In this document: positions 10,064 to 17,549 of the stretch, in pieces
Position numbering within the stretch: position 1 is the first letter of the stretch
Layout of the letters: each line of letters opens with the position of its first letter
IMG/VR virus record: IMGVR_UViG_2609459834_000002
Location: 1 to 18,246 of that record
Length of the DNA: 18,246 nt
Reading direction: 5' to 3' (one strand)
Source of the DNA: a virus
Taxonomy: Duplodnaviria; Heunggongvirae; Uroviricota; Caudoviricetes
Program-made: the position numbers and the translations under genes
Notes under the pieces: model-generated
Databases searched by the model: none
Seen by the model: only the letters and a program-made list of their open reading frames with translations
What the model was told of the DNA's origin: nothing

Positions 10064-10665
10064 GGTGACAGCCCCGGTAGTCAGTTTTTTAGAAAACTCA
10101 CCACATGGGACGCCAATCACAGAGGTGGTGAGACGTACAGGGTTGGCGTTACCGGAGACTACCGAACCCGGCCCGACCGAAGTCGGCCCTGTACGCCCCA
10201 CCATAATTTGGGCGTAGCAATGCTCATGACACGAAAAAACCGCATGAGCGCGGTTATGCTCAGTAATCAATTTCAGGACGCCAATCCCGGCACCCGTTTT
10301 ATAAGGTGCCTGAACAGTGTAACGTCCCGGAATGGCAGAATCAATGTGCTGGTGGTCCTTCACACTCAACAAAATCACGCCTGAATTTCCACAAAGGACT
10401 AAAGCACTCATGCGGGTAGTCTTTGCGAAGATAGATAACGCGCTGTGTTTCTGGCTCCCAACGAATAACATGAACATAAAGTCCTCTTCCGTCACGAAAC
10501 CAGCGGTTAAGTTCCTGCACAACTCGCCCCCCACAGTCAGGTAAAGTTCTCTGTGGTTACTTACAGCCAGGTGATTTGGTAATCTGCATTCATGCCGTAA
10601 CAACAGGTGTTCAGCGACGCTGACCACCTGTTGTTGCGACAAACGGTTATTTGCCGTTAAACTGT

Positions 10666-11229
10666 TCATGCGTTAGTTTCTCCACAGACACAAAACGCCA
10701 CGACGCCCGGAGCTGCACACTCGCGGGCGTCACTCTTTTCTGGAGCGCAAAAGATTTTGTAGACCAGTGCTGCATGCTCCTGGAGCTTCGAAATTGACAG
10801 ATACAACTCATCATTAATTGCTGTCTGCTCGTGTGGCTCCACTACCCCATCTTCGATTGCCGAACGAATCTGCTTTGAGTAACTCCCGATCTGTTCGATG
10901 ACTTCCAGCAGGCGCTGGTTTATATCGGCGTTCTCTACTTCCTCAATTTCAGGAAGCGATACAAACACCCCACCAGCAGACTGTGCGACAGCATCCGCAA
11001 TGTAGTGAGTGCCAGCCGCGCGCTGTAAAATCATTGCCCATCCCAGCGGGAAAATCTGATCGCCATCTGCACGAAGGCGGTTGAATAAAGCGTTCTCTGT
11101 TACATCCAGCCACTCAGCAGCTTCAGCGTAACCCCCCGGCAACGCCGCGATAGTTTTTCTGACAGCTTTCACGTACCACTCAGGCTGTTTTTCTACTTTC
11201 CAGTGATGCTTACCCACGGTTAGCCTCAT
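10666..11229 (-). CDS. CII-like / YdaT-like regulatory protein (tentative)
   Basis: 187-codon ORF immediately downstream of the cro-like gene on the same strand, the CII position. No strong RBS at ATG 11229; an in-frame GTG at 11217 has GAGG upstream. Family assignment is by position and weak recollection. Confidence 0.45.
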   Translation of the reverse strand: MRLTVGKHHWKVEKQPEWYVKAVRKTIAALPGGYAEAAEWLDVTENALFNRLRADGDQIFPLGWAMILQRAAGTHYIADAVAQSAGGVFVSLPEIEEVENADINQRLLEVIEQIGSYSKQIRSAIEDGVVEPHEQTAINDELYLSISKLQEHAALVYKIFCAPEKSDARECAAPGVVAFCVCGETNA

Positions 11230-11260
11230 CGTTCTGTGGTTAAAAATTGAAGGTGTTCTG

Positions 11261-11461
11261 TTAATCTTTCGGATAGATATCCGGTCTTAAGTCAGATTTC
11301 GTAATTGCACCTGACGTGCATTGCTCAAGTTTTTTAGCCAGCACAAAACTGGCTTTTTTATAACCATTGAAAACCAGCCGTAAGTAGCCTGGTGTTGAGC
11401 CAACTTTTCCGGCCAACTCGCCCTGCTGTTCTTTGGTTAAAGAGTCCCAATACGCTTTCAT
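11261..11461 (-). CDS. Cro-like HTH regulator (YdaS-like)
   Basis: ATG at 11461-11459 with GGAGG RBS about 10 nt upstream. The 66-aa product MKAYWDSLTKEQQGELAGKVGSTPGYLRLVFNGYKKAS...LRPDIYP is divergent from the repressor gene. The 167-aa track ORF is an upstream extension running through the operator region. Confidence 0.7.
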   Translation of the reverse strand: MKAYWDSLTKEQQGELAGKVGSTPGYLRLVFNGYKKASFVLAKKLEQCTSGAITKSDLRPDIYPKD

Positions 11462-11464
11462 ACA

Positions 11465-11536
11465 ATATGTACCTCCGATATACATATTACATGATTGAGA
11501 TGAACCTTCAAGATACTTGTACCCTATCGGTACAAA
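11465..11536. promoter_or_regulatory. Immunity operator/promoter region (OR-like; pR leftward, pRM-like rightward)
   Basis: Two operator-like inverted repeats: 11465-11487 ATATGTA-N9-TACATAT and 11518-11536 TTGTACC-N5-GGTACAA. Candidate pR on minus: -35 TTGAAG (plus 11504-11509) and -10 TAATAT (plus 11482-11487). The cI-like ATG at 11552 has no convincing RBS, suggesting a leaderless or weakly initiated mRNA. Confidence 0.5.
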
Positions 11537-11551
11537 GGTTTTAATTTCGTT

Positions 11552-12226
11552 ATGAAAACAGTCCATGACATCCGGCGGTCTAACGCCAGAAAACTGAGAG
11601 ATGGTGTTGGCGGGAATTCTTCCTTTGCCACCATGATTGATCGCGAGCCAACCCAGACCAGCAGGTTTATGGGGGATGGTGCTACTAAAAATATCGGTGA
11701 CAGCATGGCACGGCACATCGAAAAATGTTTCGACCTGCCTGTCGGATGGCTTGATCAAGAACACCAGACAACAAACATCACAAAAAAACCTGATGTTTCA
11801 ATCACTAACAAACAAATAACGTTAGTCCCTGTCATATCATGGGTACAGGCCGGAGCATGGAAAGAAGTTGGCTATTCTGAGGTTGATTTGAGCACAGCAG
11901 AAACTTATCCCTGCCCTGTACCCTGTGGCGAAATGACTTATATCTTGCGGGTGATTGGTGATTCAATGATTGATGAGTACCGCCCGGGAGACATGATTTT
12001 TGTTGATCCCGAAGTCCCTGCCTGCCACGGTGACGACGTTATTGCATTGATGCACGATACAGGCGAAACCACCTTTAAGCGGTTGATAGAAGATGGAACA
12101 CAGCGTTATCTCAAAGCATTAAACCCAAACTGGCCTGAACCTTACATTAAGATCAACGGTAATTGCTCTATAATTGGCACAGTGATTTTCTCAGGAAAAC
12201 CAAGAAGATACAAAATAAAGGCCTAA
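11552..12226 (+). CDS. CI-like prophage repressor (HTH plus LexA-like S24 peptidase domain)
   Basis: 224 aa. C-terminal domain has the S24 autocleavage-fold motifs (VIGDSMIDEYRPGDMIFVDPE). Divergent from the cro-like gene and followed by a strong terminator. Confidence 0.85.
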   Translation: MKTVHDIRRSNARKLRDGVGGNSSFATMIDREPTQTSRFMGDGATKNIGDSMARHIEKCFDLPVGWLDQEHQTTNITKKPDVSITNKQITLVPVISWVQAGAWKEVGYSEVDLSTAETYPCPVPCGEMTYILRVIGDSMIDEYRPGDMIFVDPEVPACHGDDVIALMHDTGETTFKRLIEDGTQRYLKALNPNWPEPYIKINGNCSIIGTVIFSGKPRRYKIKA

Positions 12227-12239
12227 TCAATATTTATAA

Positions 12240-12260
12240 CCTGCTTCGGCAGGTTTTTTT
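12240..12260 (+). terminator. Rho-independent terminator after the repressor gene
   Basis: CCTGC-TTCG-GCAGG hairpin followed by T7 (12254-12260), 14 nt after the cI-like stop. Confidence 0.7.
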
Positions 12261-12264
12261 ATAC

Positions 12265-12297
12265 TTGACAATGTACCCTCGAGATACATAATGTATC
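12265..12297 (+). promoter_or_regulatory. pL-like promoter with overlapping operator (OL-like)
   Basis: -35 TTGACA at 12265-12270, 17-nt spacer, -10 ATAATG at 12288-12293. The spacer holds a 19-bp operator-like site ATGTACC-N5-GATACAT (12271-12289), overlapped by the perfect palindrome GATACAT-A-ATGTATC (12283-12297). Confidence 0.5.
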
Positions 12298-12575
12298 TAA
12301 AAGAAACATGTCACAGGCAAGATTAAACAAAATTTGGTTGTAACACGGCGTATGGCACATGCGTCGTTAGCGGTCTGGGGACGTTAAAGGGGACAATCCA
12401 CTCCTTGCTCGGGCAAACAAACCAGGTAGCCGGAATGTGCAAGTCAATGATGATGCTGATAAGACGCCTAACCAGCGTGGCGGTTCGGTTTGACACCTGG
12501 GAAGAGACCAGGGTGCAACGATGAGGGCATTTATGGAACCGCGACAAAGTGTGGTGCCGTAACTGGCTAAGTGCT

Positions 12576-12596
12576 CTCAGCGTTGTGGTGAATGCG
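12576..12596 (+). repeat. 21-bp direct repeat, copy 1 (CTCAGCGTTGTGGTGAATGCG), followed by a GC hairpin
   Basis: Differs from the copy at 13204-13224 by one base. Followed by hairpin GCGCA-GGCTGA-TGCGC at 12594-12609. Lies in the roughly 450-nt leader between the pL-like promoter and the first small ORF. Confidence 0.6.
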
Positions 12597-12739
12597 CAGG
12601 CTGATGCGCGAAAGACATTGCAGCTATTGCGGAAAAGAGCTGTTCGGCGGGGCAATTAAACGCCCGTATCTGGAGGTTAAAGAACAAAATGAAAGTCCAG
12701 ATTTTAAACAATAACTGTGAAGTCGTTTGGGCGTAAAAC

Positions 12740-17354: not shown

Positions 17355-17549
17355 AGAAAACTCCCGAGACGATAAGGGCGCCTCTAACCTCTTAGTTAAA
17401 GTTAGCTTGTCCAGCCAACTTGTGCCAATCGGTTCCTCCGATTGGTGACATCGTTTTCAGTAGTGCGAATACATAACGACTGTCCCAGATGTACCTTTAA
17501 GGTAATCCGGATGGATATCCTACAATCTGTAGACACTCGGCGTCTACAT

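Follow-up and report, generated by a model that had tools for sequence, protein, structure and literature searches.

The region between approximately positions 11246 and 12325 of the window, meaning the whole 18,246-bp stretch of viral DNA analysed here, is very probably the immunity cassette of an e14/SfV-type lambdoid prophage, with a lambda-style two-repressor switch acting through 17-bp operators. It represents one more copy of an already known, very common cassette, in which the operator region has already been annotated and the leaderless repressor mRNA has already been published. All 224 residues of the CI-like repressor agree with YmfK/CohE, encoded by the cryptic prophage e14 of E. 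coli K-12, and the cI product of the Shigella phage SfV is likewise 100% identical. At the DNA level, the locus shares 97-99% identity with the immunity regions of phages cdtI, SfV, SfIV, Ayreon and a set of Stx2c-converting phages. The GenBank record of SfV contains a 'putative operator region' that corresponds to positions 11467-11535 of the window, exactly from the site designated Oa through the site designated Oc (Table 1). The function of these sites as operators is strongly supported, at the level of sequence, by phylogenetic footprinting and by the way in which the motif tracks the DNA-binding domain of the repressor through natural domain swaps.

Of 5426 complete E. coli genomes, 1324 (24%) contain an 881-bp core of the cassette, K-12 being one of them. 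Few lambdoid immunity cassettes are commoner in E. coli than the e14/SfV type, which is also carried by a set of Stx2c-converting phages and by the cdtI toxin phage. It is noted that the earlier note on this DNA did not recognise the known e14/SfV immunity cassette. The comparative data provide a five-site operator map, a 17-bp consensus and promoter assignments that are transferable to ymfK and ymfT of K-12, two regulators still labelled 'putative'. The map predicts the superinfection immunity and the SOS inducibility of the toxin-carrying relatives. Its value is one of annotation, and it introduces no new principle.

Genes, predicted operators and promoters of the immunity region

The cI-like and cro-like genes form a divergent pair, in which an HTH-type Cro-like protein stands opposite an S24 repressor. 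The Cro-like protein gives weak matches to HTH_3 and YdaS in a domain search. The C-terminal domain of the repressor resembles that of lambda CI in a PDB sequence search (PDB 1F39, E = 1.9e-9), and the self-cleavage residues A100-G101 (Ala-Gly), S138 and K176 all lie in conserved alignment columns. The N-terminal HTH received no Pfam call. The PDB sequence search returned no close, characterised homologue of this domain; its only match was a weak one, to the N-terminal domain of SPC32H Rep (5D50, E = 0.0026). The gene that follows cro has the position of ymfL in e14 and carries a Pfam domain of the 186-type, or 186/P2-type, CII (CP76) family.

Table 1. Features of the immunity region, with positions in the window
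Feature	Positions	Strand	Description
cro-like gene, 66 aa	11261..11461	minus	ORF and translation; counterpart of RefSeq ymfT in E. coli K-12 e14
Oa, strong predicted operator	11468..11484		TGTACCTCCGATATACA; exact pattern match; PWM score 19.4
pR-like promoter for cro, putative	11484..11511	minus	-35 TTGAAG 11511-11506, 16-nt spacer, -10 TAATAT 11489-11484
Ob, weak predicted operator	11501..11517		TGAACCTTCAAGATACT; two mismatches to consensus; PWM score 8.7
pRM-like promoter	11517..11552	plus	-35 TTGTAC 11517-11522, 17-nt spacer, -10 TTTAAT 11540-11545, 6 nt, ATG 11552
Oc, strongest predicted operator	11518..11534		TGTACCCTATCGGTACA; perfect inverted repeat; exact match; PWM score 22.5
cI-like repressor gene, 224 aa	11552..12226	plus	Peptidase_S24 C-terminal domain, E = 1.5e-26
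Intrinsic terminator of cI transcript, just before pL	12238..12262	plus	terminator scan
pL-like promoter, reading away from cI	12265..12292	plus	TTGACA-16-CATAAT; 11/12 consensus matches
OLa, strong predicted operator	12272..12288		TGTACCCTCGAGATACA; exact match; PWM score 21.9
OLb, probable weak operator	12292..12308		TGTATCTAAAAGAAACA; PWM score 11.9

The earlier note had described three related palindromes that flank the repressor gene, and all of them are present at the places given for them, two between the cro-like and cI-like genes and the third in the pL spacer. The pattern TGTAY-N7-RTACA has exactly three matches (Oa, Oc and OLa) on both strands of the 18,246 bp, against 0.03 expected, and none of 200 shuffles of the window reaches three. 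The sites are real, but two particulars of the original description are to be revised. The conserved core is 17 bp rather than 19 bp, with the consensus TGTACC-N5-GGTACA; the first interval, 11465-11487, in fact spans 23 bp, and its flanking bases are unconserved. In addition, the count is five rather than three. Repeat finding and a mismatch-tolerant search revealed two sites that had been missed, Ob, which abuts Oc, and OLb, which is 20 bp from OLa, so that three sites are assigned to OR and two to OL.

All five sites stand out in a scan with a symmetrised PWM, which was trained on other loci only, with the window left out. The six highest-scoring matches in the window are Oc, OLa and Oa, a stray match at 17490 (score 12.2), OLb and Ob, after which the score drops from 8.7 to 1.5. 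We did not accept the stray match, which spans 17490-17506, as functional. It carries two mismatches, a level at which 1.4 matches are expected by chance; it is also present in the heteroimmune phage mEp460, within the shared flank, and it has no counterpart near int/xis in e14. No binding, footprint or reporter data on these operators were found in the searchable literature on SfV, Stx2c, e14, ymfK and cohE, and a full-text literature search with the operator sequences themselves gave no match.

The position of pRM is fixed by the published transcription start of ymfK at its ATG, together with the near-identity of K-12 and the window in this segment, where a single base differs between Oc and the ATG. 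Published dRNA-seq counts ymfK among five leaderless mRNAs of E. coli; its transcription begins with the A of the ATG, and its leader length is 0 nt (PMC4681348, main text and Table S3). The proposal of a leaderless, pRM-type repressor mRNA was thus correct, and had already been demonstrated for the identical ymfK of e14, the gene on which the measurement was made (PMC4681348). In 18 of 18 aligned loci the start codon is an ATG with a -10-like hexamer 6-7 nt upstream, and no Shine-Dalgarno sequence for cI is conserved either in the aligned loci or in the Pseudomonas phages discussed below.

The pR promoter was read from the sequence. With 8 of 12 consensus matches it falls under the threshold of the promoter scan; its TTG and the position of its -10 are conserved across loci. 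Both hexamers of pL are invariant in the 18 loci, and pL is annotated as a promoter in the record of phage Ayreon. At the position of the terminator that precedes pL, a hairpin with a T-run is found in most related loci, and a terminator is annotated in the GenBank records of SfV and Ayreon. An Rfam search of the pL leader (12280-12720) returned one sub-threshold chance match and nothing else.

Starts are predicted at about 11477 on the minus strand for pR and at about 12299 on the plus strand for pL. Each of the five sites has a defined position relative to these promoters. Oa begins at the final base of the pR -10 and reaches about +10 (about -7 to +10 of pR) and holds the Shine-Dalgarno sequence of cro, GGAGG, on the minus strand. 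Ob lies over the pR -35, with its centre at -43 relative to the start of pRM, while Oc covers the -35 and the spacer of pRM and is centred at -26. On the other side of the repressor gene, OLa fills the pL spacer and overlaps the first two bases of the -10. OLb lies over the pL start, beginning with the last T of the -10, in the same register that Oa has at pR.

Conservation of the sites and their link to the repressor N-terminal domain

A phylogenetic footprint was constructed from the window and 17 distinct loci taken from a genome scan (18 in total), with repressors 73-100% identical to that of the window. The 17 loci are from Escherichia, Pseudocitrobacter, Klebsiella, Leclercia, Atlantibacter, Phytobacter, Enterobacter, Pantoea, Trabulsiella, Kluyvera, Limnobaculum, Rahnella, Edwardsiella and other genera. 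Over the 18 loci, the half-sites carry 1.83 bits of information at Oa, 1.81 at Ob, 1.95 at Oc and 1.92 at OLa. The central five bases carry 0.48 bits at Oc and 0.50 bits at OLa, and these bases drift at about the neutral rate, the third codon positions of cI having 0.74 bits. The centre of Oa is fixed by the Shine-Dalgarno sequence of cro and that of Ob by the TTG of the pR -35, so part of the conservation of Ob is promoter-driven. At OLb, the left half carries 1.9 bits and the right half 0.85 bits. The spacing is invariant, with 33 bp between Oa and Ob, 17 bp between Ob and Oc, and 20 bp between OLa and OLb, and the ATG follows Oc at 34-35 bp.

The same picture is obtained at closer and at wider range. 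An alignment scan of IMG/VR gave only 100%-identical copies of the repressor, which are usable for microvariation and not for covariation. Among the 78 IMG/VR loci, the operator differences lie almost entirely in the centre bases and at positions 13-14 of Oa, and a few loci have single half-site changes in Ob and OLb. In about 5.6 kb around each of the 17 loci there is no extra site above score 8, except for a weak match inside cI in three E. coli-type loci. Across the 15.6 kb that span e14 in K-12, the PWM gives its three highest scores to members of this set of five sites, which also make up five of the six matches above score 6.

It is unlikely that only Oa, Oc and OLa are operators and that Ob and OLb have been kept for promoter reasons, which would leave OR with two sites and OL with one. 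Such a reduced set would agree with the PWM scores of Ob and OLb (8.7 and 11.9, compared to 19-22 for the strong sites), with the pR -35 TTG in the centre of Ob, and with the near-neutral right half of OLb, which some loci lack. However, the left half of Ob, TGAACC, is invariant in 18 of 18 loci even though it falls within the spacer of pR, a stretch whose sequence promoters do not dictate, and the Pseudomonas counterpart of Ob has the canonical TGTACC in the same place. The 17-bp register from Ob to Oc is invariant as well. The left half of OLb is an exact TGTACC in 16 of the 18 loci, and its register to the -10 of pL is that of Oa at pR. We favor the five-site map, in which the near-neutral right half suggests that OLb is a weaker and partly dispensable site.

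The motif tracks the N-terminal domain of the repressor. The presumed recognition-helix residues R31, T34, Q35, S37 and R38 are invariant, including in a Pseudomonas phage repressor. Where the repressor of a Pseudomonas phage shares 58-61% of the N-terminal domain, OR again consists of the same three sites, placed at -85, -50 and -34 relative to the ATG, and the geometry of a -10, 6 nt and the ATG is kept as well. The three-site OR is retained both where the C-terminal domain is homologous and diverged (CF60a group) and where it is a different one (L170-L174). Conversely, repressors with the same C-terminal domain (70-78%) but an unrelated N-terminal domain do not have the motif at their loci, where other repeats are found instead.

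A natural exchange of the whole segment leads to the same relationship. The heteroimmune phage mEp460 shares the flanks of the window up to 11245 and from 12326 and has a different cI/cro pair, and the motif is absent from its swapped segment, 11246-12325. The homology to SfV ends at 12308, which is the last base of OLb. The boundaries in mEp460 and SfV together delimit the cassette that carries immunity specificity to about 11246-12325. The statement of the earlier note that the sites and the repressor define the immunity specificity of the prophage fits these data, as mEp460 swaps exactly this segment and lacks the motif there.

Two further explanations of the sites were considered. It is highly improbable that the palindromes are RNA hairpins or terminators rather than protein-binding DNA. 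The terminator scan does list 11517-11535, then AGGTTTTAAT (Oc plus TTTTAAT), but the stem of Oc has only three G-C pairs, its T-run is unconserved in relatives (for example CACAATGTTTAAT), and both arms of the palindrome are invariant, so that there is no covariation. A terminator at Oc would stop transcripts entering cI from upstream, and the mapped cI transcript begins downstream of Oc. This terminator call was rejected on the evidence of the stem, the T-run, the transcript start and the covariation; moreover, the same 17-bp motif occurs at OLa in a promoter spacer from which no RNA is made.

Binding by a host factor such as LexA at SOS boxes, in place of the phage repressor, is hardly credible either, given that the LexA box is CTGT-N8-ACAG whereas TGT and ACA are 11 nt apart here, and that the motif follows the phage repressor N-terminal domain from E. 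coli to Pseudomonas hosts and is gone when that domain is swapped. A review does list 'potential SOS boxes' near the e14 genes ymfE, ymfI and intE (PMC6590174), and genes of e14 are inducible by SOS; the e14 division inhibitor, however, is reportedly not under LexA repression (bioRxiv 10.1101/2020.11.19.390815).

Proposed operation of the switch and the OR-OL distance

We propose that dimers of the CI-like repressor would bind the TGTACC-N5-GGTACA operators through the N-terminal domain, and that Cro probably binds the same sites. We infer the site-by-site binding by CI or Cro, and its order, as follows. CI at Oa would block the start of pR. CI at Ob could stimulate pRM, by analogy with lambda, in which CI at OR2 activates pRM. 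Occupancy of Oc, over the pRM -35, could provide negative autoregulation, or alternatively Oc could be the site used by Cro for cI shut-off. OLa in the pL spacer and OLb over the start would jointly block pL. The cI transcript starts at its ATG, as has been shown for e14, and ends at the terminator before pL.

After DNA damage, RecA-stimulated self-cleavage of CI would release pR and pL, again by analogy with lambda; this part of the proposal is based on the presence of the Ala-Gly site and of the catalytic Ser and Lys in the repressor. The expression of the e14 division inhibitor, which is reportedly SOS-inducible and LexA-independent (bioRxiv 10.1101/2020.11.19.390815), agrees with induction by RecA-dependent cleavage.

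Looping between OR and OL through CI is plausible by analogy. The distance from Oc to OLa is 754 bp in the window and 753-756 bp in 18 of 20 loci, the other two having 765 and 782 bp. It is 754 or 755 bp in the 78 IMG/VR loci. The figure, which corresponds to about 72 helical turns, is suggestive, but it should be mentioned that this constancy is not evidence for a loop, since it is largely explained by an indel-free cI and the tight packing of the terminator and the promoter. An apparent compensation between the length of cI and the spacer from the stop codon to OL, which could have pointed to selection on loop length, was also rejected, as it reflects a shift of the stop codon without indels.

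The most symmetric and best-conserved site, Oc, on the pRM -35, the weakened and abutting Ob (always TGAACC) three turns away from Oa, and the OR-OL distance of about 755 bp could also be taken to indicate a switch that does not follow lambda logic. Negative autoregulation would then be dominant, sites 33 bp apart would pair cooperatively, and the loop between OR and OL would be compact and phase-constrained, in a design present in K-12 itself and conserved as far as Pseudomonas phages. We consider this reading doubtful and prefer the lambda-style switch outlined above.

Comparison with e14/SfV-type, Pseudomonas and lambda switches

The closest relatives are e14 (ymfK/cohE and ymfT/croE), SfV and SfIV, and the cdtI and Stx2c phages, which have the same cro, five sites, spacing, terminator and pL as the window. 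The repressors of the cdtI and Stx2c phages are 99% identical to that of the window. The differences are in the non-contacted centre bases and in a few half-site positions, and the flanking early genes are mosaic. For example, the right half of Oa is TATACA in the window and GTGTACA in K-12; another example is the left half of OLb, TGTATC compared to TGTACC. According to the SfIV paper, SfIV, like SfII and SfV, has no homologues of N, cII or cIII (PMC3851460), a further difference from lambda.

A more distant comparison can be made with the repressors of the Pseudomonas aeruginosa vB_Pae_CF60a type, which are 58% identical in the N-terminal domain to the repressor of the window and share with it the recognition-helix motif REPTQxSR. 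The OR of this type consists of TGTACCTCCTGGGTACA, then after 35 bp TGTACCGTCAAGGTTCT, the counterpart of Ob, then after 16 bp TGTACATTTCTGGTACA. In contrast, the linker of the CF60a-type repressor is longer and its C-terminal domain has diverged, giving an overall identity of 33%. The locus also differs in having no OL pair directly after the gene, with a single matching site about 1.85-1.9 kb downstream.

In lambda, cI and cro diverge, the operators are 17 bp long and partially symmetric, OR has three sites, and a second cluster lies over pL beyond cI. Its pRM is leaderless, with a -10 followed by 6 nt and the ATG; the middle OR site is at about -42/-43, and the pRM-proximal site is over the pRM -35. 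The window shares all of this layout. A divergent pair of an S24 repressor and a Cro-like protein, several operators over pR and pRM, a second cluster over an outward pL beyond cI (with half of OLb conserved) and a leaderless cI transcript are all found here. Ob is at the position of lambda OR2, and the S24 domain is homologous to that of lambda CI.

The differences from lambda lie in the sites themselves and in their arrangement. The half-site, TGTACC, is unrelated to TATCAC in lambda. The centre-to-centre spacing is 33 and 17 bp at OR and 20 bp at OL, compared to 23-24 bp in lambda, and Ob and Oc abut without a spacer. There are two OL sites here and three in lambda. The OR-OL distance is about 0.75-0.8 kb, with no rex genes intervening, compared to about 2.4 kb in lambda, and the CII domain encoded after cro is not that of lambda CII. 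The most symmetric site, Oc, is on the pRM -35, which is the reverse of what lambda OR3 would suggest. With Oc in this position, and pRM nevertheless active in K-12 lysogens, the affinity hierarchy of the operators may be different from that of lambda.

Mosaic borders of the immunity cassette and a distal operator-like match

The immunity cassette is tightly bracketed by mosaic junctions at 11245/11246 and 12308-12326. Homology of the heteroimmune phage mEp460 to the window ends in the interval that separates cro from the cII-like gene, at 11245, and restarts at 12326; that of Shigella phage SfV ends at 12308, the final base of the predicted pL operator OLb. TGTACCTTTAAGGTAAT at 17490-17506, close to the distal limit of the early-left genes, resembles an operator with two mismatches (score of 12.2 with the operator matrix built from other loci). 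This match is probably due to chance rather than a true operator, since the identical sequence is present in mEp460 and no counterpart was found near int/xis of e14.

The pL leader and repeats beyond the repressor gene

A conserved element occupies the first ~70 nt of the pL transcript in about 10 of the 17 related Enterobacterales loci (listed for L003, L006, L008-L011, L013, L016 and L020). It consists of ACAGGCAGGACGCCCACGAAGTAGCCGCC, followed by a stem of 5 bp whose 12-nt loop is conserved, and then ATGATTCGC, with covariation at three stem pairs; in L003, a boxA-like GCTCTTTAACAA lies farther downstream. The element could serve as a leader RNA signal, of the nut/boxB-like kind or another. 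The window retains only fragments of it, a diverged version, at 12311-12372.

The Pseudomonas phages L028, L112 and L132 carry a different palindrome, TGTATATACA, in two copies directly 3' of the repressor gene. They also have a single TGTAC-N7-GTACA-like site ~1.85-1.9 kb downstream of OR, which may be the OL equivalent.

Genes and RNAs downstream of cro

Positions of features in the window and in the Pseudomonas phage loci
Feature	Position	Strand	Basis
Gene after cro	10666-11229	minus	Pfam "Phage regulatory protein CII (CP76)", E = 8.5e-15
Antirepressor-annotated ORF, 387 aa	9506-10669		Annotation in relatives
C4 antisense RNA	10121-10208	minus	Rfam, 82 bits
isrK	10233-10309	minus	Rfam, 60 bits
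TGTATATACA/downstream-site observation	L028 2300-2400; L112 ~3008; L132 ~3101

The gene following cro, which matches e14 ymfL by position, encodes a CII domain of the phage 186/P2 type. SfIV, SfII and SfV were described as lacking cII (PMC3851460), so it is possible that an activator of establishment went unnoticed.

Both RNA matches (together 10121-10309) fall inside the antirepressor-annotated ORF, on the same DNA that encodes its Pfam Phage_ASH match (aa 117-212); a Rha domain follows. Either the ORF is over-called, or this stretch has a dual use as RNA and coding sequence. In the dual-use reading, it would resemble the modules that control antirepressors in P1/P7 immI-like or Gifsy isrK-type systems.
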